Origin: a virus
Lineage: Duplodnaviria; Caudoviricetes
Virus record (IMG/VR): IMGVR_UViG_3300033120_000387
Coordinates: 1-64,000 of that record
Direction: 5' to 3' (one strand)
Length of the DNA stretch: 64,000 nucleotides
In this document: positions 2,708-51,521 of the stretch, piece after piece
Layout: the number at the start of each line of letters is the position of its first letter
Position numbering within the stretch: position 1 is the first letter of the stretch
Translations under genes and position numbers: made by a program
Notes under the pieces: model-generated
What the model was told of the DNA's origin: nothing
Databases searched by the model: none
What the model saw: the letters and a program-made list of their open reading frames with translations, nothing else

Positions 2708-3609
2708 TTATGGCATAATATACATGAATAAACACATACCTCTTGATGGAGTGCCTACAGTAGTACCTGTACTCCCTTCAAAAGATGTACCTGCTCCTGC
2801 ACCATAACCACCTGCGCCGCCGCCGCCGCTTCCACCTGTTGAGCTAAAACTCAAACCGCCCGCATATTTACCTTCACAACCACTACCACCATTTTTATAA
2901 GGATAGCAACCACCACTACCACCAGCATATCCTCTTAAATCTGGCAAAAGTGCTAATATGCGATTAGTGAAATCGTTTGATATCAAAGCTGTAGAATATA
3001 AACCATCTTTTCCATTCATATCAATTTCACCACCAAGAGACCCACCTAAATTATCTATAGCAAATCCTCCACTTAGACCTTGTGCTTGTTCAGTATAACC
3101 AGTCCACCGCACACCTCCACCACCAAAGCCAAAAGCACCGCCATTTCCTCCTCGAGAATTATAATCACTTCCTTCACCATTAACGCCTGTTATAACACCT
3201 AAAATATTAGCGTTCAGTCCCTTTGTTATGCCACCTGCTGTAAGCGTTATCGTTTGCCATGAAGGATTGCTGCTTGTTATAACAGTATTCCCTGAACCCA
3301 CTTGGACAGTAAGTATATCCCCTTGCGTCACTGCGTATTCTCTTCCTGCTATGTATTGCCCTGCTTCATTCCTTAAACCCGCACCACAAGCGTATATCCA
3401 TATTTTGTTTACGCCTGTTGGTACAGTCCATGTAGTATTTCCATTTTCATAAGTAAAAGCGGCTAAACCTATATTGGAATGTAAGTTTGCGAATCCAACA
3501 TTAATTTCATCAATTCTACTATTGAAACCGTCCATGTTAAACCCTTCAGTTAGAGTAAATGGAGAGACAAACCCCCCGTTGTTAATAAATTGTCAATGTT
3601 GTTGCTCAT
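2708..3609 (-). CDS. Glycine-rich tail-fibre/adhesin-like protein; full length requires a -1 shift at the G6 tract 3577-3572 (annotated ORF 3535-2708)
   Basis: SD AAGGAG + ATG 3609 gives MSNNIDNLLTTGG then stop at 3552-3550; the -1 frame continues GGFVSPFTLTEGFNMDGF...; TWTVPTGVNKIWIYACGAG and GGGG repeats typical of glycine-rich tail domains. Confidence 0.75.
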
Positions 3610-3691
3610 AATTTTTTCTCCTTTTTAATATTTGTTTTAATATAATAAATCAATTCCAATGAATTAATCTATCTTTGATTTTTTAAAGTGC

Positions 3692-3886
3692 TTATCCTTC
3701 AATTACCTCAAATTTAACCCCTTCACAATCACAACTTGCGCCATAAGGCATACCCATAAATGATGTAAAGATGTAATATTCAGGTGGATAACTATTCTCC
3801 ATATCAATTGTAAATATGTCATCCTTATTCCATATAAGCGTATTTGTCTCGTTATCGTATTCAGTTGTTAACATTTTAATTTTCAT
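3692..3886 (-). CDS. Hypothetical protein
   Basis: 64-aa ORF coupled to the upstream gene (TAATG overlap). Confidence 0.6.
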   Translation of the reverse strand: MKIKMLTTEYDNETNTLIWNKDDIFTIDMENSYPPEYYIFTSFMGMPYGASCDCEGVKFEVIEG

Positions 3887-4578
3887 TATTTCTCTCCTTC
3901 TAAAAATTCACAATATTTATTCCATAACCCTATTTTATGTACATATTCTCGGTCTTTTAATTTAGTATCATTTTTTATCTTGTTTTGCTCTAAGAATTTT
4001 TTATTAACACTTTTAACATATAAACCGTCAATTATAACCTTGTCACCCATATTCCTTGTAGGATAGTTTTTGATTGCGTCTTGATATTTTTCTAAATCAG
4101 ATTTAGGAATAATATATGATTCTTTTGGCAGGTTTTTGGTCGAAAAGGGTGATATTTTAGCCCCACTTGTTCTTGCTCCCACCACCTCAGCTATATAATC
4201 TATCATATCTGCTTTAAAATCAAAACATACTTCAAAATCAAGCACTTCTACAGATTCTAATACACTTGACAAAGATTCAGTTAATTTATCATAATATTTT
4301 TTAGTGTTGCTATTTTCTATTGGTAGTGTATTACTAATTTTATCTATATATATTTGTTTTAAAATGTTAACCCCTTTTGTTTTGTTGGGAATGTAACAAG
4401 AGAGACTGCTTGTTTTAGATATGTGACGGATTTTTATATTGTTTTTGCAATCTATATACATACCGTCAAAATCTTTATCATAATCACCATTAGTATCTTT
4501 AACAAAATTCTGTGTGGATAGGTCATAATCGGTTTTAACACGATATTTACCTATATATCTTCTTAAATACTCTGCCAT
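3886..4578 (-). CDS. Phage hypothetical protein (start MAEYL at 4578)
   Basis: SD AGGAG upstream of ATG 4578; long ORF in operon. Confidence 0.7.
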   Translation of the reverse strand: MAEYLRRYIGKYRVKTDYDLSTQNFVKDTNGDYDKDFDGMYIDCKNNIKIRHISKTSSLSCYIPNKTKGVNILKQIYIDKISNTLPIENSNTKKYYDKLTESLSSVLESVEVLDFEVCFDFKADMIDYIAEVVGARTSGAKISPFSTKNLPKESYIIPKSDLEKYQDAIKNYPTRNMGDKVIIDGLYVKSVNKKFLEQNKIKNDTKLKDREYVHKIGLWNKYCEFLEGEK

Positions 4579-39821: not shown

Positions 39822-41288
39822 ATGACGGTATATAATGGTAATGTAATAAGTCCTACACAAAGACTTGTAAATGGCGATATAATTGAGTATACTTTTTCAG
39901 GTAGCTTAAAAAATATAATATTAAAACAGGGAACTTATAAATTTGAATGTTATGGTTCAGCATCCTCTGATGTAAGTGGTACTAGCGGTACTGATAATAG
40001 AGGTGGATATGCTGGGGGTACGATTTTAATTACAGAAGATAAAGAATTTTTTATAGTTGTAGGTGGTAATACATCTGGTAATTTTAATGGTTCTGCAAAT
40101 GGTGCTAGAGGTGGTGTATATTCTGGTGGTGGTACTGATATTAGATTAACTGGTGGGAACTGGAACGATCTAGCTTCTTTGTGTAGCAGAATTATAGTCG
40201 CAGGTGGTGGTGGTACAAGAGGAGCTAGTAATAAATATGGTGGTTATGGTGGCGGTTTAACAGGTCAATCCAGAACAGAAAACTATGGTAGTTATGGCGA
40301 GGGTGGCTCACAAACTGGTTCGGGTACATACGGTGGTTTTGGCTATGGTGGCGCAGGGCAATATCGTTCAAATGGTTATGGTGGCGCTGGTGGTGGTGGA
40401 TATTACGGCGGTGGTGGAGTATATCCGGATAGAAGCGGTGATGATGACAGAGGCGGCGGTGGAGGCTCTGGTTTTATTTCAGGTTTAGCTGGATGTAATG
40501 CTGTAATATCTCAAACCAATAGTGGGGCAAGCGGTCAGCCAAACCATTATAGTGGGCTAAAATTTACAAATGCTTCTATGCAAAATGGAATCAGAGATAC
40601 CACGGGATTAGTAAGAATAACAGTAATAGAATTAGTGCCACAATATATCATAACAGCAACATCAAATAATAATGGTTTAATATCTCCGAGTGGTAGTATA
40701 GAGGTAAATTATGGAGAATCACAAAATTTTACAATGATTCCAAATATGGGGTACAAAGTGCTTGATGTAACAGTAGACGGTGTATCACAAGGAAAAATAA
40801 CATCATATACATTTACAAATATTGCCGCCAATCATACCATATCTGTCACTTTTGAATCTATAATATACACTATAACATCTTCTGTTGTAGGCAATGGTCA
40901 AATTATGCCTCTTGGTACAACCAATGTAGATTATGGGGGTACACAATCATATACTATAATTGCCGATGAAGGATATAGAATAAATGATGTTGTAGTAGAT
41001 GGTGTAAGCATGGGTAGAATGAATACTTATACATTTACTAATGTTTTATCTGACCACAATATATCAGTAGAGTTTGTACTATTTTCAAATATTAAGCTAG
41101 GCACGAATATGGTAAATAATATGAAAATAGGCGCGGTTAAAGTTAAATATGTATATTTAGGCTCGACAATGATAGCAAATTATGTAGTACCGTTGATATG
41201 GTCAGATGTAAATGCTTTAAACTACACATTCCAAGATGTCAACAATCTTAACCTCACATGGCAAGATGTAAATGATGGCAAATTATAG
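39822..41288 (+). CDS. Glycine-rich-domain tail protein with two Ig-like repeats
   Basis: GTYKFECYG, GGGTDIR, RIIVAGGGG, GGGGSGF; two YTIT...G.I.P.G...V.YG..Q repeats. Confidence 0.8.
   Translation: MTVYNGNVISPTQRLVNGDIIEYTFSGSLKNIILKQGTYKFECYGSASSDVSGTSGTDNRGGYAGGTILITEDKEFFIVVGGNTSGNFNGSANGARGGVYSGGGTDIRLTGGNWNDLASLCSRIIVAGGGGTRGASNKYGGYGGGLTGQSRTENYGSYGEGGSQTGSGTYGGFGYGGAGQYRSNGYGGAGGGGYYGGGGVYPDRSGDDDRGGGGGSGFISGLAGCNAVISQTNSGASGQPNHYSGLKFTNASMQNGIRDTTGLVRITVIELVPQYIITATSNNNGLISPSGSIEVNYGESQNFTMIPNMGYKVLDVTVDGVSQGKITSYTFTNIAANHTISVTFESIIYTITSSVVGNGQIMPLGTTNVDYGGTQSYTIIADEGYRINDVVVDGVSMGRMNTYTFTNVLSDHNISVEFVLFSNIKLGTNMVNNMKIGAVKVKYVYLGSTMIANYVVPLIWSDVNALNYTFQDVNNLNLTWQDVNDGKL
41197..41288 (+). 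repeat. Copy 1 of a C-terminal W/DVN repeat shared with the next gene
   Basis: AAACTACACATTCCAAGATGT identical at about 41219 and about 42427. Confidence 0.75.
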
Positions 41289-41302
41289 AAAGGAGGGAGT
41301 AT

Positions 41303-42496
41303 ATGAGTTTAACACAACCACTTTTATTAACACAAACCGCATTTGATGCCACTAACGCACAAACATTCCTATTTAATGTAGTAGGTGGTTCACAAGTAGT
41401 TAAAAACACACTTAAAATAACAGATAATACAACAAATATCGTTGTATATGAACAAACACAAACAACCTATACTTTTGAACATATATTGCCTGCAAATACA
41501 TTAACAAATAGCAAGAATTATGTGGCGCAAATACAGACAATAGATGCTAATAATGATACTTCACCTTGGTCGAATATTATAACCTTTTATTGTTATGCAA
41601 CACCTACATTTACCATATCGAATATGCCGACAGGTAATATAATAGCCAACTCAAGCTATGTGTTTCAAGCTACATATAATCAAGCAAGTGGAGAATTATT
41701 AAATTCCTATGATTTTATTTTATATGACTCATCTAATAATCAGATAAGTACAAGTGGTGTACAATATGTGGGAAGTAGCACACCTCCTCCTACAATCATA
41801 TCTCATAAATTTAGTGGGTTTGAAGATAATACTATATACAAAATAGAAGTAAAAGGTGTGACCGCTAACGGAACAATTATCACAACTGGTATAATACAAT
41901 TTATCACTAATTATACTGTCCCTATCTCTTTTGGCGCATTTGAATTAGCTAATAATTGTAATGATGGATATATAAATATTATTAGTAATATGTTGTCAAT
42001 AAAAGCACAAAGTAATCCTTCTCCACCTATATATATAGAAGGTGAAGAAGTTGATTTAGTTAATACAGGCACATATGTAGAATGGATAGAGGGCTTCGAT
42101 ATACCTAATGATTTTGTCCTAAGAGTATGGGGTAGAGCCTTTATGTTAAACAATGTTATATGTATAGCTAGCAACCCTGATATGCCGAACGAAAAATTGC
42201 TTTTAACATATCATTATGATAATGTTAATAAAGAGGTTTCTATTATAGTAGAATATATCACAGGAGGTCAATCATCTTTCTTTTTTAGTAACGCAATAAC
42301 AGTGCCGATAGCAAAAGACCAATTGTTTGTATGGGTAAAAAAAATAGGTGATAATATTACGGTAAATCTTGATGTAACCTATGTTAGTCCTGATAGAACT
42401 TATATATGGTATGATGTAAATAATAGAAACTACACATTCCAAGATGTGAATAATCTTAATATAACATGGGCGCAAGCAAATCAAGGAGGTTGGTAA
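41303..42496 (+). CDS. Baseplate/distal tail protein with FN3-like domains
   Basis: AFDATNAQTF, ITFYCYATPTF, ATYNQASGELLNSY. Confidence 0.7.
   Translation: MSLTQPLLLTQTAFDATNAQTFLFNVVGGSQVVKNTLKITDNTTNIVVYEQTQTTYTFEHILPANTLTNSKNYVAQIQTIDANNDTSPWSNIITFYCYATPTFTISNMPTGNIIANSSYVFQATYNQASGELLNSYDFILYDSSNNQISTSGVQYVGSSTPPPTIISHKFSGFEDNTIYKIEVKGVTANGTIITTGIIQFITNYTVPISFGAFELANNCNDGYINIISNMLSIKAQSNPSPPIYIEGEEVDLVNTGTYVEWIEGFDIPNDFVLRVWGRAFMLNNVICIASNPDMPNEKLLLTYHYDNVNKEVSIIVEYITGGQSSFFFSNAITVPIAKDQLFVWVKKIGDNITVNLDVTYVSPDRTYIWYDVNNRNYTFQDVNNLNITWAQANQGGW
42404..42496 (+). repeat. Copy 2 of the C-terminal W/DVN repeat
   Basis: IWYDVNNRNYTFQDVNNLNITW vs IWSDVNALNYTFQDVNNLNLTW. Confidence 0.75.
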
Positions 42497-42498
42497 AA

Positions 42499-43335
42499 TT
42501 GTATACAAATGTAAAATTACAAAATGGCATATTTGACCATTTTAATGTAACAAAAGATGTCGATGCTCCTTATAGTACAACAATACCTACAGCTTGGGAT
42601 TTATTAACGATTATGGATTGCGATTTTAAAAATAATATAGACGCAGGTAATATTGACTATGCACTAACCTTAATTGATACAATAAAAATAAAGCGCAGAA
42701 TAAAAGGAGAATTTGATTGGCTCACATTGGCTTCTATACCTATCAGAGTTGCATCCGATTTAAAATTTATTAAACCAGACTTCTTTAATCAAAACAATAT
42801 AGAATATGAGTATGCTTTAGTGCCTGTAATGAGCGGAGTTGAGGGAGAGTATATAATACAGTCCGTATTAAGTCAATTTGACGGTGTGTTTATATGTGAT
42901 TATGAAACGATATTTAAATTTTATGCAGGGGTTAGCTATGGTGATACTGAAAGTATACAAGCCGTAGGCGTTTATGAGCCTATTGGCGCAAAATACCCTA
43001 TTGTTGTAGTGAACGCTAATACAGATTATCATACAGGTAGCGTAAATGCTACTATGATGCCAAGTGAATTTTATACAGATGGTACAATAGATAGGCAAGC
43101 AATTGTGAATTATACAAATTTAGTTGATAAATTCTTGAAAAATAAGCGTGCAAAGATATTAAAAGATTGGAACGGTTCGATTTATTTATTGATGGTGACG
43201 GGAAATCCATCGTTATCTTATGCAAATAATTATGGTATGGGCATAATCAACACATCGTTTTCATGGACTGAACAAGGCGACCCTAATAATCAAGAAAGTT
43301 TATATGACAATGGTCTCGTTAATATACTAGAATAG
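42499..43335 (+). CDS. Distal tail/baseplate protein (TTG start)
   Basis: IKIKRR..GEFDW, YEYALVPV, KILKDWNG, SFSWTEQGD. Confidence 0.7.
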   Translation: MYTNVKLQNGIFDHFNVTKDVDAPYSTTIPTAWDLLTIMDCDFKNNIDAGNIDYALTLIDTIKIKRRIKGEFDWLTLASIPIRVASDLKFIKPDFFNQNNIEYEYALVPVMSGVEGEYIIQSVLSQFDGVFICDYETIFKFYAGVSYGDTESIQAVGVYEPIGAKYPIVVVNANTDYHTGSVNATMMPSEFYTDGTIDRQAIVNYTNLVDKFLKNKRAKILKDWNGSIYLLMVTGNPSLSYANNYGMGIINTSFSWTEQGDPNNQESLYDNGLVNILE

Positions 43336-43348
43336 GAGGTATTAGGCT

Positions 43349-44743
43349 ATGAATATTACACAGAATATGTATAATGTGCTTTTACAACAGCAAAGAATTT
43401 TACATATTAAAGTTAATTTGCTTAACTTCCAATTCCTAACAGTAAATGAATTGAGTGGCTTGGTTTTAAATCCTCCACAAATAGATATAAATGCTAATAG
43501 TGATATAAGGCGCACTTGTGATATAGAAATGGTAGTAAAAGAAAGATTATATGATATTGAGGTTGGAGGGCAGATTTTTATTGATAAATTTGTTCAAGTA
43601 TATTTTGGTATTGAAGATATTAGAAATAGCAATGAAATAGTGTGGTTTAATCAAGGAATATACCTCATAAATGCACCAAGCGTTCAATACAATGCTACTA
43701 CTAATACATTGTCATTTCAAGGTGTAGATTTAATGGCTAAATTGACAGGAATGAGAAACGGCTACTTAGAGGGTATACCAAGTGTAATCCCTAAAGATAG
43801 TGTAATTAGAGATGTAATAATTAGCACATTAGCATTAGGCGGTTTTAATAAATATATAATCAATATTAAAGACACCGATACCAAGACACCTTATGAGATT
43901 AAATTAGATATAGGCGCAACTGTATATGATATATTAGCTAAATTGAAAGAGATATATAGTGCTTATCAAATGTATTTTGATATAGATGGGGTTTTCCATT
44001 ATGAGCCTTATCCAACTGATGAAAATGCACCAATACTTATAGACAATTCAATGTGGGATAGATTGTATATATCTCACACAAATGCAGTTGATTTTGAGCA
44101 AGTAAAAAATGTTGTCGAGGTTTTAGGTAAATCATACGATATACAACATTATGGAGCGACAACAACAGTTAGTGGAAGTGAGTATACTACTAATATTGCA
44201 AGTCTAAGTGCTTTATCTAACGATATACTTATAGGGTTTACAGCACCAAGCGTTGTAGTAAATCCTACATTAAAAATCAATAATTTTACAGCATATCCTA
44301 TTGTAAATGAAGATGGCACAAGTGCTGTTATACCCGAAGCTAACAAATATTATGTTGTCCAATATAAAGACAGTAAATATATATTCATGGGATATCAGCA
44401 AGTTAGAGCAACCGCAAAAGATGAAAATCCTGACAGTCCATTTTATGTAAATGGAACAACAGGCGAAATTAGAATTGTTTTGAGTGGAGGAGAATTTGAC
44501 AATATACCAAGCAATAAACTAGCTTTAGATAGAGCAAAATATGAGATATATATGCGGTCAAGAGTTAATGATAGTTTAATAATAGAAACTATACCTATAT
44601 ATTTTGCCGATGTATATCAATTGATATCATTTAAGTTTCCTGATGATGTGGAAACTTATTTATATATGATACAATCAATATCGACAAGCGATACACAAAC
44701 AATAACTTGTTCAAGATTTTATCCCCTATATCCTTTTTCATAG
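43349..44743 (+). CDS. Baseplate hub/tail protein
   Basis: ANSDIRRTC, DLMAKLTGMRNG, MYFDIDGVF, VKNVVEVLG. Confidence 0.75.
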   Translation: MNITQNMYNVLLQQQRILHIKVNLLNFQFLTVNELSGLVLNPPQIDINANSDIRRTCDIEMVVKERLYDIEVGGQIFIDKFVQVYFGIEDIRNSNEIVWFNQGIYLINAPSVQYNATTNTLSFQGVDLMAKLTGMRNGYLEGIPSVIPKDSVIRDVIISTLALGGFNKYIINIKDTDTKTPYEIKLDIGATVYDILAKLKEIYSAYQMYFDIDGVFHYEPYPTDENAPILIDNSMWDRLYISHTNAVDFEQVKNVVEVLGKSYDIQHYGATTTVSGSEYTTNIASLSALSNDILIGFTAPSVVVNPTLKINNFTAYPIVNEDGTSAVIPEANKYYVVQYKDSKYIFMGYQQVRATAKDENPDSPFYVNGTTGEIRIVLSGGEFDNIPSNKLALDRAKYEIYMRSRVNDSLIIETIPIYFADVYQLISFKFPDDVETYLYMIQSISTSDTQTITCSRFYPLYPFS

Positions 44744-44776: not shown

Positions 44777-46234
44777 ATGAGCAATATAACAACACCGTTT
44801 CAATTGACGGATAATTTTAATATGACCGAATTTAATGGTATGTTAAATGATATAAATACAAATACGATAGCACCAAATATAGATATAAGCACAACAACTG
44901 CTAATTTATATGATACAAATAATGTAGATACAGCATTACAAATGATAGCAATAGCTAAAACGACCATAACGCTTACTTCAACTGCTGTGGGCAAGGTGGC
45001 AAGAATTGAGCAAGGAGCTATTATTTTAACACAAACAGCGACAGGGAGCACCATTGTTTTTGATGTGCCCAAAACAGGAACTTGGAATATATATTATGAT
45101 AATATTGGTGTAGGAAGCGCAAATATTAATGTAGGGGATAGTTTTGTTAAAGATGTAGGTTATAAAATAATGACATTAAATATAGACCTTACTAACTCAA
45201 ATCCTGCAACTTGCGCTACTTATGCAGACGATGCAGTCACTATGACGGCAGGTGGCAGTGATTGGGATGCATGGTTTGGTATTAAGCCATGTTTATTTAA
45301 AAACGGTGCGGTAGTAGGGTATTTAAATCCTAATAATTTTACACAGTTTGCAGATGGTTCTGCCGCCGACATCACAAGTGGCAATGCAGGCGATGTTATG
45401 ATTGAGTTTCCGAGGTTAGGTTTGAATATTACTACTGTTGGCAACACACTCACAATATCTATGACAAACAATCCTAACAATAGTAGCTTTAACTACTTGG
45501 CACATACAAGAGGCTCGACAAATAAAGATTATTTTTATCTTGGAGCATACAAAGGTTATACGATGGGTGGTCAAATTCGTTCCCTTAGTGGTAAAGCACC
45601 AACAACTTCACAAACCATTGGAACATTTAGAACTCAAGCCCAAGCAAATGGGGCGGGTTATGAACAAAGTGGCTTTTATCAGCTTATATTTAGACAAGCA
45701 ATGTACTTGTTAAAATATAAGAATCTTGATTCACAGACCGCACTTGGTAGGGGTTATGTTGATGGTAACAGTGCAGCAATTGCTACTGGTGGCACAAATG
45801 CCAAGGGCATGGACTTTGGTGAAACAACTGGTAAACTACAAATGAAGTTATTTGGGCTTGAGGACTTCTGGGGAAATGTTCATGAATGGATTGATGGATT
45901 AGTATCCACCTCTACTTGGAATATGCTGACAACTACAGATAATTTTAATGATACCGGTGCAGGGTATATGGATAATGGTCAAGGAGCAAGCGCTAATATT
46001 GGAAACTATATGAGTAAACCTCAAGGAACAACTAAGACTGGGTTTATTGCAAAAGAAGTAACTGGTTCGGGTAGTACTTACTTCTGCGATTATGCGAGTT
46101 TGTATTCTTCCTGTGTTGCGAGTTTTGGCAGTGGTTGGGGTGATGCTTCGGGTGCGGGTGCTTTCTGTTTGCTGGTGTATATTGCCGCTTCGTATTCGGG
46201 TGCTGCTGTCGGCGCGCGCTTGATGTTTTTATAA
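44777..46234 (+). CDS. DGR target: tail receptor-binding protein with C-terminal C-type-lectin/FGE-like variable domain
   Basis: GDVMIEFP, YLGAYKG, GLEDFWGNVHEWIDG, terminal GARL; the 3' end is the VR. Confidence 0.92.
   Translation: MSNITTPFQLTDNFNMTEFNGMLNDINTNTIAPNIDISTTTANLYDTNNVDTALQMIAIAKTTITLTSTAVGKVARIEQGAIILTQTATGSTIVFDVPKTGTWNIYYDNIGVGSANINVGDSFVKDVGYKIMTLNIDLTNSNPATCATYADDAVTMTAGGSDWDAWFGIKPCLFKNGAVVGYLNPNNFTQFADGSAADITSGNAGDVMIEFPRLGLNITTVGNTLTISMTNNPNNSSFNYLAHTRGSTNKDYFYLGAYKGYTMGGQIRSLSGKAPTTSQTIGTFRTQAQANGAGYEQSGFYQLIFRQAMYLLKYKNLDSQTALGRGYVDGNSAAIATGGTNAKGMDFGETTGKLQMKLFGLEDFWGNVHEWIDGLVSTSTWNMLTTTDNFNDTGAGYMDNGQGASANIGNYMSKPQGTTKTGFIAKEVTGSGSTYFCDYASLYSSCVASFGSGWGDASGAGAFCLLVYIAASYSGAAVGARLMFL
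46088..46231 (+). repeat. DGR variable repeat (VR)
   Basis: 144-nt ungapped match to TR with 31 mismatches, all opposite TR A. Confidence 0.97.
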
Positions 46235-46260: not shown

Positions 46261-46404
46261 GATTATACGAATTTGAATTCTTCCTGTGTTACGAATTTTG
46301 GCAGTAATTGGAGTAATACTTCGAATACGGGAACTTTCTATTTGCAAGTGAATAATACCACTTCGAATTCGAATGCTAATATCGGCACGCACTTAATGTT
46401 TTTA
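46261..46404 (+). repeat. DGR template repeat (TR)
   Basis: AAT/ACN-rich copy of VR; flanked by IR GGGTAATGG 46246-46254 / CCATTACCC 46423-46431. Confidence 0.97.
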
Positions 46405-46523
46405 ATATTGACCCACGTGCAACCATTACCCTGGCTCTTGCCAAAACATAAAAAGTAAAAAAGTTGTACTGGTACTCAATAAGGAAGGTTCAACATCAAA
46501 AAACATCAATGGAGGTCAGGAAC

Positions 46524-47678
46524 ATTAAAAGATACGGAAACATATATGAGAAAATATATGATATAGAAAACTTAAAACTCGCACATAAAAATGCGAGAAA
46601 AGATAAGACCTGCTATAAAGAAGTTAAAATGGTGGATGCTAACGAAGATTATTATTTAAGTGAGATTCAGAAGATGCTTAAAAAAGAAACTTATGAAGTT
46701 AGCACATATGAAATTTCAGTGATAAATGACAAAGGTAAAGAAAGAGAATTATGTAAATTACCTTACTATCCAGACAGAATTATTCAATGGGCTATCATGT
46801 TACAGGTTGAGCATATATTCATGCAGGTGTTTACAACATTCACCTGCGCTTCAATAAAGGGTAGAGGTATTCATAAAGCTTCATCTTTGTTAGATAAATA
46901 TATGAAAGATAAAGAAGGTACTAAATATTGCTTAAAGGTTGATATTAGTAAGTTCTATCCAAACATTAACCATAGTATCTTAAAAAGATTGATACGAAAG
47001 AAATTCAAGGATAAAAGATTACTTAGTATTTTAGATAAAATAATAGAAAGTACTCCAGAAAATAAAGGTGTCCCAATAGGTTCATATTTATCTCAGTTTC
47101 TTGCAAACTTCTATTTAGCATATTTGGACCATTGGCTAAAAGAGGTAAAGAGAGTTAAGTATGTTGTTAGATATATGGATGATATAGTTATTCTACATCA
47201 TTCGAAAGAATATTTACACCAATTAAAACGGGAAATGGATATATACTTGGATAATGAACTCAAGTTAAAAATCAAAGATAATTGGCAGGTGTTCCCAACC
47301 GCAATTAGAGGTATAGACTTTGTAGGTTATAGACATTTCTATGGTTACAAATTATTAAGAAAATCTACTTGTAAAAGATTTAAGAAACAAATGCCAAAAA
47401 TTAGAAAGAAATGTAGCCAAGGTCATAAATTAAATTATTCAGAATGGTGTTCAGCTAATTCTTATAAGGGGTGGTTAATATGGTGCAGTAGTTATAGATT
47501 AAGTAAAAAATACATTGACCCTATTCAAACTTATTTAGATGAATATTATCAAAAGCAAATTAAAGAAAGGGAGGTAATGCCTTATGAAAGACATGGGAAT
47601 AGTACAAGGTTCTGTCGCGCAAGCGCAACCTATAATAATAAACAAAGACACAGTATATGTGCATACAAACATCGTTAA
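46524..47678 (+). CDS. DGR reverse transcriptase (probable ATT start at 46524; in-frame ATG at 46509)
   Basis: KRYGNIYEKI, YYPDRIIQWA, LKVDISKFY, GVPIGSYLSQ, RYMDD, GIDFVGY. Confidence 0.95.
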   Translation: MKRYGNIYEKIYDIENLKLAHKNARKDKTCYKEVKMVDANEDYYLSEIQKMLKKETYEVSTYEISVINDKGKERELCKLPYYPDRIIQWAIMLQVEHIFMQVFTTFTCASIKGRGIHKASSLLDKYMKDKEGTKYCLKVDISKFYPNINHSILKRLIRKKFKDKRLLSILDKIIESTPENKGVPIGSYLSQFLANFYLAYLDHWLKEVKRVKYVVRYMDDIVILHHSKEYLHQLKREMDIYLDNELKLKIKDNWQVFPTAIRGIDFVGYRHFYGYKLLRKSTCKRFKKQMPKIRKKCSQGHKLNYSEWCSANSYKGWLIWCSSYRLSKKYIDPIQTYLDEYYQKQIKEREVMPYERHGNSTRFCRASATYNNKQRHSICAYKHR

Positions 47679-49158: not shown

Positions 49159-49788
49159 ATGGCTATTATATTTAATAGTCTGCCTGTCAAACCTTTAAGA
49201 ATAACAAGTTATTACGGTAAAAGGAATACTAATATAAGTGGGGCATCTACTTTTCATGAAGGAATAGATTTAGGTTACAATAAATCTCTATCCCAAACCC
49301 CTATATTATCTGTGGTAAGTGGTACGGTGTCTGATAATTATTGGAACGACTATCGGGGTTGGGTTATTGTTATAAATCATGGAGAATTTAAAACGCTATA
49401 TCAGCATTTAAAATCTCAATCACCTTTAAAAAAGGGCGATAAAGTTACCACAGGACAGCAAATAGGCATAATGGGTGATAGTAGTAATCCAAATAAATTA
49501 AACATATCGACTCATTTACATTTTGAATTGATATATAATAATGAAAGCATTAACCCCTTGTATTATTTAAGAAATATAAAGGAGGTGGAAGATTTGACAA
49601 GAGAGGAAACGATAGCACTAATCAAAGAAATATTAGCATCACAAGATGTTAAGGCGTCAGATTGGGCGAAAAAATATTGGACACAAGCAACATCTGAAGG
49701 ATTAGTTGACGGCACTCGACCAAGAGGATATCTTACAAGAGAGGAAATGGTTAAAGTGTTGTTGACGGAAAGGAGTAAAAGGAAATGA
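49159..49788 (+). CDS. M23 peptidase endolysin with SLH-like C-terminus
   Basis: ITSYYG, HEGID, YQHL, HLHFE; SDWA...GLVDGTRP...LTREE. Confidence 0.88.
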   Translation: MAIIFNSLPVKPLRITSYYGKRNTNISGASTFHEGIDLGYNKSLSQTPILSVVSGTVSDNYWNDYRGWVIVINHGEFKTLYQHLKSQSPLKKGDKVTTGQQIGIMGDSSNPNKLNISTHLHFELIYNNESINPLYYLRNIKEVEDLTREETIALIKEILASQDVKASDWAKKYWTQATSEGLVDGTRPRGYLTREEMVKVLLTERSKRK

Positions 49789-50442: not shown

Positions 50443-50967
50443 TTACTTTCCACTTGCACCCAAGCAACCATCTCCACGCTTACTAGGTATTGCTTGAATT
50501 TCCTCATATGTATATTCCTCAATGTCAGCAAAGGGAACAGATAATAATAGTGCTTGACAAATTGCCTTTTCGTAAGGATATGATATATAGTTAGAATTAA
50601 GTGTTCTTATTCCGAAATATTCAATACCATCATAAGCATTAGAATACTCTTTTTTTATAATTAGTATAGGTTTGTTATTGTGATTAGTGAGGGGTACAAA
50701 CCACTCCCCACGATACCCTGAATCTATAATTCCTGACCTTTGACCTATTCCTTTAGTTCCAGTTGAGCCTCTTTCTTTTAAGACTATAACATAATCAGTA
50801 TCAAAAGCACTACATATTCCTGTAGGTATCATTTTAGTTTCATGTGGTGGGATAATCATATAATCCTCATCAAAACAAGGATAAATATCATATCCTGCAT
50901 TTTCTAAATCTTTACTAGGAATAATCGCTCCCTCTCTAATCTTGGCAAATTTAACTGTTGTTATCAT
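50443..50967 (-). CDS. dut: Trimeric dUTPase
   Basis: AGYD, ERGS, GIIDSGYRGE, ICQ, RGDGCLGASG. Confidence 0.93.
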   Translation of the reverse strand: MITTVKFAKIREGAIIPSKDLENAGYDIYPCFDEDYMIIPPHETKMIPTGICSAFDTDYVIVLKERGSTGTKGIGQRSGIIDSGYRGEWFVPLTNHNNKPILIIKKEYSNAYDGIEYFGIRTLNSNYISYPYEKAICQALLLSVPFADIEEYTYEEIQAIPSKRGDGCLGASGK

Positions 50968-51521
50968 TTTTTACCTTTTCTCCTTTTTAATAATTGTATT
51001 AACTTATAAACCTCATCTAAATTATATACCCTATTTATGTTTTTGTCAACATATTTTTCATTATGTGGTCGTGTATATAATATTTTATCGAAATCACCTT
51101 TTGCAAGATTGTGATATCCATCATCTACTAAACAATCTATGTTTAATAATGACTTATCATTTATCTGTATGATTTGTTCATATTTTATAAACGGAAACAA
51201 AACATGAAATCTTTCAAATTTAGATTTAGGTGTGGTTGGACAAGTTGCTGTTACTATATATAATTCAATATCTTCATCATTTTGTAATAATTGGAGAAAC
51301 TCTTTTGCCCCTTGCGTTGGTTTAACATTTTCCCATAGTCTATCCCATGATAAAAAAGAGTATATGATTGATTTATGTTCATCGGGAATAAATAATGATA
51401 TATCCCAATCGGTAATATCTTGTTGATATAATGGCTCTTTGGCAATTTTGTTATAACACTTTAGCCACTGTTCTAAAGTTTCAAATAATACATCATCTAA
51501 ATCTATGCCTACTTTATAAAT
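50964..51521 (-). CDS. 5'(3')-deoxyribonucleotidase (HAD family), ATT start
   Basis: Frame open from ATT 51521 (GGAGG 7 nt upstream): YKVGIDLDDVL...YIVTA...DKSLL..DCLVDDG. Confidence 0.85.
   Translation of the reverse strand: MYKVGIDLDDVLFETLEQWLKCYNKIAKEPLYQQDITDWDISLFIPDEHKSIIYSFLSWDRLWENVKPTQGAKEFLQLLQNDEDIELYIVTATCPTTPKSKFERFHVLFPFIKYEQIIQINDKSLLNIDCLVDDGYHNLAKGDFDKILYTRPHNEKYVDKNINRVYNLDEVYKLIQLLKRRKGKK

Follow-up and report, generated by a model that had tools for sequence, protein, structure and literature searches.

The closest described cases of a phage fibre gene whose product depends on the length of a base run, or on a single base, come from two directions. In laboratory lambda PaPa, the side tail fibre gene stf is said to have been found frameshifted by Hendrix and Duda in 1992. 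Homopolymeric tracts that work as switches usually count at least eight G or C, and slippage by RNA polymerase normally needs longer runs of A or T. We know of no description of a DGR coupled to a homopolymer-switched alternative receptor-binding protein. In Fletchervirus phages of Campylobacter, receptor-binding genes have been described that contain hypermutable polyG tracts (Sorensen et al. 2021, Cell Rep 35:109214; as cited in PMC12823448 and PMC10877375). Phage PMBT24 of Enterocloster bolteae is a siphovirus (PMC11035940), and its fibre module includes a ‘glycine rich protein’ of the family PF21722.

The window studied here is the stretch of 64,000 nucleotides from position 1 to 64,000 of the IMG/VR record IMGVR_UViG_3300033120_000387, which represents a virus of 100,107 bp, rated complete by CheckV, with 30.5% G+C. 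The genome has a single G/C run longer than six, a C7 at 66696-66702, and this one stays in frame within an ordinary ORF of the minus strand (..ESVRGGYTNED..). A module of tape-measure, baseplate and fibre genes is placed on the plus strand and ends in a DGR; its baseplate proteins are encoded at 39822-44743. The baseplate protein of 42466-43335 shares 46-47% identity with its counterparts in the approximately 100-kb Enterocloster bolteae phages. The window phage is, by its sequence, siphovirus-like and of gut type, and a distant relative of the Enterocloster bolteae PMBT24 group. By analogy with these phages, its host would probably be a gut bacterium of the low-GC Clostridia. The fibre position in the window is taken by the DGR target, while the gene in focus here, coding for a glycine-rich protein, is found 41 kb off on the opposite strand. 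Its neighbours are DNA-metabolism genes, i.e., HNH endonucleases, a Gam-like protein, a dNMP kinase and a ligase-like protein. Recent horizontal import of the gene was considered and rejected; its GC3 equals the genome mean, and it is thus regarded as resident. The features referred to below are the following.

3618 to 3623, minus strand: Shine-Dalgarno (SD) sequence AAGGAG, read directly, 8 nt 5' of ATG 3609.
3550 to 3609, minus strand: start codon (ATG 3609-3607) and frame-0 remnant of 19 codons (MSNNIDNLLTTGG, out-of-frame LSLHLL, stop).
3572 to 3577, minus strand: G6 run and frame break, at codons 12-13 of the ancestral gene.
2708 to 3592, minus strand: -1 frame ORF from stop to stop, P0001, 295 codons (294 aa and the stop at 2710-2708).
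3533 to 3535, minus strand: annotated internal ATG, at which gene callers start, giving 275 aa.
3500 to 3562, minus strand: shared N-terminal motif PFTLTEGFNMDGFNSRIDEIN, also present in the DGR target.
2711 to 3472, minus strand: glycine-rich tip domain (Gly_rich_2-like, TNF-like/polyglycine), from the Pfam matches of homologues and from fold search.
44777 to 46234, plus strand: DGR target tail-fibre gene, P0002, with the N-terminal motif at 44795-44857 and the VR at 46088-46231.
46261 to 46404, plus strand: DGR template repeat (TR); all VR mismatches are at TR adenines.
46464 to 47678, plus strand: DGR reverse transcriptase (YMDD).

Direct reading of the minus strand confirmed the arrangement first reported for this locus, namely the AAGGAG, the ATG 3609, the 19-codon frame, the G6 run and the open -1 frame. 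The pairing energy of the AAGGAG with the anti-SD was -8.9 kcal/mol, which is the median for genes of this genome. Frame 0 from ATG 3609 comprises 19 codons and then meets TAA 3552-3550. Either G7 or G4 at 3577-3572 would restore one gene, and with one added G, or with a -1 shift within the run, a single protein beginning MSNNIDNLLTTGGFVSPFTLTEGFNMDGFNSRIDEIN is obtained. The translation of the -1 frame is GGFVSPFTLTEGFNMDGFNSRIDEIN; P0001 contains the second half of the anchor at its N-terminus, followed by a helix and by the glycine-rich tip domain. The internal ATG 3535 is situated 14 nt past the stop of the 19-codon ORF and is preceded by a weak SD, GAAGGG at 3547-3542, with a spacing of 6 nt. 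The SD energy at this codon was -5.0; 83% of gene starts have a stronger SD, and 92% of internal Met codons a weaker one.

The surroundings of the gene were inspected as well. Its leader and ribosome site (3614-3645, ACAAATATTAAAAAGGAGAAAA) are 88% identical over 32 nt to positions 50976-51009 on the minus strand, which form the leader of a dUTPase gene (50443-50967). A good promoter was seen upstream of the dUTPase leader copy, none upstream of the copy belonging to the glycine-rich gene. Directly 3' of the stop of the glycine-rich gene, at 2655-2695 on the minus strand, there is a sigma-70 promoter that fits the consensus at 12/12 positions (TTGACA, 17 nt with TG, TATAAT), enclosed by an inverted repeat of 10 bp without mismatch, ACACTCTCTT...AAGAGAGTGT. 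The repeat looks like an operator that overlaps the promoter serving the ligase-like gene 2298-2633.

The N-termini of P0001 and of the DGR target P0002 were aligned without gaps by pairwise BLASTP (E 7e-8), and the proposal that the two genes have an N-terminal module in common was thereby upheld. The core of the alignment is PFTLTEGFNMDGFNSRIDEIN in the glycine-rich gene and PFQLTDNFNMTEFNGMLNDIN in the DGR target, and the stretch of the DGR target aligned without gaps to the -1 frame is TPFQLTDNFNMTEFNGMLNDIN. Nine of the aligned residues precede Met-3535. In addition, the frame-0 residues ahead of the G run, MSN..TT, parallel the MSNITT of the DGR target, relative to which the G run falls in an insertion of five residues, GGFVS. 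The motif was also recognised outside this phage. P0006, which is distantly homologous to the glycine-rich body, starts in frame with MSTQTTNYGFLKPALTD..NSNWDTVDEEL, which aligns to the shared-motif stretch, and several homologues of the DGR target start with NYNLIKP...D.YD..FNENADIID. When aligned with MAFFT, both window N-termini matched, at the very N-terminus, the class NYxLxKP..D.YD..FNxNxDIID (P0006, P0055, P0110, P0111, P0113, and P0119), and no aligned fibre N-terminus had lost the half equivalent to NYxLxKP. Within this class the two window copies are divergent, and they are mutually nearest relatives. A word search with the first 60 residues of the DGR target found no match except itself, and a back-translated motif pattern found none in IMG/VR. 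To our knowledge there is no curated family for the motif NYxLxKP..D.YD..FNxNxDIID.

Homology to the DGR target and to other fibre N-termini supports the earlier suggestion that the frame upstream of ATG 3535 is coding. Since this homology reaches upstream of ATG 3535, ATG 3609 is the true, ancestral start of the glycine-rich gene, and the gene is frameshifted. Annotation pipelines call the 275-aa ORF alone and in this way miss both a broken fibre gene and the anchor it has in common with the DGR target. The window motif is a divergent member of a widespread class of tail-fibre N-termini, and so is no unique adaptor. What gives meaning to the anchor shared by the two window genes is a modular design, in which a phage-specific anchor is combined with an exchangeable tip. 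Attachment to the virion would be through the N-terminal motif, and the two fibres may dock at one and the same baseplate site. The gene pair illustrates neatly how modular fibres occur in nature: a single private anchor carries two unrelated tips, of which one is hypermutated by the DGR and the other apparently silenced.

The DGR itself is real, with its VR/TR pair and reverse transcriptase; the VR and the TR differ at 31 positions, 31/31 of them at TR adenines. We also considered the glycine-rich gene as a second DGR target, and rejected this because the TR matches the VR of P0002 alone. The C-terminal part of the DGR target, about 74% of the protein, shares 65-77% identity with over 1600 proteins (among them the homologues P0039-P0157). 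At least four kinds of N-terminus occur on these DGR-tip homologues: the NYNLIKP motif with fibre repeats PF22337, tail-collar PF12571, collagen, and others. With so many homologues and such varied N-termini, the tip of the DGR target behaves as a very mobile cassette. In an IMG/VR relative (L006:4050-7181), a reverse-transcriptase-like ORF comes directly after a fibre-like gene of 607 aa, and DGRs may recur at this position in the lineage. After the DGR of the window there is an M23 peptidase-like endolysin (49159-49788). In both of the loci L003 and L004 the glycine-rich homologue is followed by one and the same set, namely a protein of about 137 aa, a Cu_amine_oxidN1-domain protein, an M23 peptidase and a holin.

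P0001 and P0004 had no match in Pfam, even at E values up to 1, and did not reach the gathering score of PF21722. No match was found in NCBIfam, and a profile search of PDB sequences returned chance matches only. However, a search of 5.8 billion proteins matched P0001 to P0007 (E 3e-10) and P0012 (E 1e-5), both of which score 32 bits with PF21722 Gly_rich_2, above its cut-off of 24.3. In a set of 1.84 billion representatives, P0001 had only 20 similar proteins. The alignment of the glycine-rich family (22 sequences) had 27 invariant columns, and the similarity of the P0001 homologues was confined to the glycine-rich body, their N-termini being different from each other. The order of elements is beta strands FTVPxGV..I.ACGAG, then GGAFGFGGGG, AGGYGAGGG, and a C-terminal GMVLI strand. 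The AF2 model of the protein had a mean pLDDT of 68.6, with values over 90 in the core (about residues 41-120) and low confidence in the glycine loops. It consists of a confident beta core and a helix which begins exactly at Met-3535, the first 18 residues being disordered. Fold search with VIA-align gave the fibre of cyanophage Pam3 (Z 11.2 and 10.9), the tail tip of mycobacteriophage Bxb1 (Z 9.0) and the glycine-rich TG domain of ALK/LTK (Z 6.5-8.5), and the matches among predicted viral structures were glycine-rich domain proteins, tail fibres and minor tail proteins. The two best homologues, P0006 and P0005, sit between baseplate and lysis genes, one in a prophage and one in a phage contig. 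The fibre-tip fold and the position of homologues at tail-fibre sites support the view that this is a receptor-binding type (adhesin) gene, and the body of the protein is, as modelled, a Gly_rich_2-type fibre tip.

Relatives that keep the split were looked for in several collections. The region and P0001 gave no match by blastn and tblastn, respectively, against 50,697 phage records. Scans of IMG/VR with P0001, with the exact context of the G run and with two neighbouring proteins gave none, and the same was true for a scan of JGI metagenomes. The glycine-rich profile A2 had no match in the whole sequences of 19 related IMG/VR phages and PMBT24, and the early-region neighbours of the glycine-rich gene had no counterparts in PMBT24. 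The distant homologues of P0001 were all unsplit.

We favour, at about an even chance of being right, a reading in which a dispensable accessory fibre gene suffered an unprogrammed frameshift mutation and was left silenced or N-terminally truncated. The region 2708-3609 would then be a second, accessory tail-fibre or receptor-binding gene, made of an anchor motif paralogous to that of the DGR fibre, a helix and a glycine-rich tip. In the sampled population one base would have been lost in the G run at codons 12-13, most simply by shortening of a G7 run to G6. Ribosomes that start at the strong ATG 3609 and decode normally would terminate after 19 codons, so that the full-length fibre would be absent or made at error level only; at most, translation might restart at the weak ATG 3535 and yield a protein of 275 residues, in which the conserved first half of the anchor is missing. 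The outcome would be loss of function of the glycine-rich fibre gene. Reversion by rare slippage in the G run would be possible, and we saw no sign that the site evolved as a switch. Since the 275-codon frame is fully intact, either the break is recent or the frame is still selected, by expression from ATG 3535 or by occasional reversion. Codon choice counts against a plain frameshift. GGG makes up 10.9% of the Gly codons and ACG 5.8% of the Thr codons in the genome, and GGGGGG occurs in 0/129 Gly-Gly dicodons of its ORFs; a stretch ACG-GGG-GG(G) built from rare codons would suit a G tract under selection.

The break was reproduced in separate assemblies. Homopolymers are the commonest sites of indel errors. 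Positions 2892-4000 are covered by Logan contigs of two runs, both of the same study, with 0 substitutions, 0 indels and G6 in both, these being contigs at a depth of about 5-8, which drop minority variants, and one of the runs may be the source sample. A further run, X1, gave only a short, unrelated G+C-rich match. The origin of both supporting runs in one study leaves some room for an artefact, with a true G7 and an intact gene, but we consider this very unlikely: the two runs were assembled separately and show no differences over more than 1.1 kb, and six G's are short for such an error. Besides, 45 long homopolymers (A/T of at least 7, G/C of at least 6) lie inside intact ORFs genome-wide, and the assembly thus has no general problem with homopolymers.

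If the run is truly G6, the rare codons could also belong to a slipped-strand phase-variation (contingency) switch, off at G6 and on at G7 by replication slippage, with a minority of virions carrying the glycine-rich fibre besides or instead of the DGR fibre. The tract occupies codons 12-13, at the 5' end of the gene, which is where such switches classically sit, and the ORF beyond it is intact. The Campylobacter phages provide a precedent for polyG-switched receptor-binding genes. Such a switch is nevertheless unlikely here. A tract of six is shorter than in known switches, no other length form was present in the contigs of either run at a depth of about 5-8, and G/C runs of at least six are not enriched, with three in 100 kb against about 2.3 expected by an estimate from base composition. 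The phase variation offered in the initial annotation was therefore not supported, given G6 in both runs, the short tract and this lack of enrichment. Two layers of host range, in which the DGR mutates the tip of the main fibre and the G tract stochastically toggles a second fibre with the same anchor, competing for the same site or adding to it, appear quite unlikely. Should G6/G7 heterogeneity be present in reads, the locus would be the first case of a DGR and a homopolymer switch acting together on host range. The same annotation had seen the second fibre as metered by ribosomal frameshifting or by polymerase slippage. Indeed, G_GGG_GGT (3577-3571) formally fits X_XXY_YYZ in the zero frame, the SD of the leader is strong and the -1 product is the complete protein. 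A programmed -1 shift or transcriptional slippage yielding a small fraction of full-length fibre is, even so, highly improbable. In E. coli, G_GG.G_GG.U gave 0.018% frameshifting without a stimulator, the lowest of 64 heptamers (PMC4066793), and no stimulator was recognised at this locus. The fold of 3470-3630 had a z of -1.05, which is not significant, the sole local hairpin is weak and uses the G run itself, and no GGAG, GAGG or AGGA lies 6-17 nt upstream of the run. None of the homologues is split, and six G's make transcriptional slippage unlikely.

A functional 275-aa protein translated from ATG 3535 by termination and reinitiation after the 19-codon leader, the upstream homology being a relic, is a plausible, though rather unlikely, alternative. 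The short distance from the leader stop, the GAAGGG at 6-nt spacing with an SD that beats 92% of internal Met codons, the predicted helix beginning exactly at Met-3535 and the intact ORF all speak for it. On the other side, that product would be without the NYxLxKP-equivalent half of the anchor, which all aligned fibre N-termini have kept, its SD is weaker than that of 83% of real starts, and every motif-bearing homologue starts upstream of the equivalent point. The unprogrammed frameshift remains the account that we prefer.

Compared with the described systems, the locus has something in common with each. Like phages with multiple receptor-binding proteins on a common N-terminal anchor (modular fibres), the window phage has two genes with a short common module and unrelated tips, of CLec type in the DGR target and glycine-rich in the other; in contrast to those phages, one of the two genes is broken, and the common docking is a prediction. 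The Fletchervirus polyG genes likewise have a G tract in a phage receptor-binding gene which decides whether the protein is produced, whereas the tract in the window counts six G's only, is without length variation in the contigs of two runs, belongs to a class of tracts that is not enriched in the genome, and is unproven as a switch. The PF21722 proteins of phages, among them the ‘glycine rich protein’ of PMBT24, minor tail proteins of mycobacteriophages and the Pam3 fibre, have the same domain order as the window protein and have in common with it the fold match to solved fibres and the fibre position of homologues; the window protein differs in being under the Pfam cut-off, outside the tail module and frameshifted. 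The stf gene of lambda is also an accessory tail-fibre gene with a single-base frameshift and an intact downstream frame. The window break differs from it in lying 12 codons from the start and in a G run, and the window gene belongs to the early region and runs on the opposite strand; the main fibre of its phage is diversified by the DGR. In both, the phage is viable on its main receptor-binding protein.
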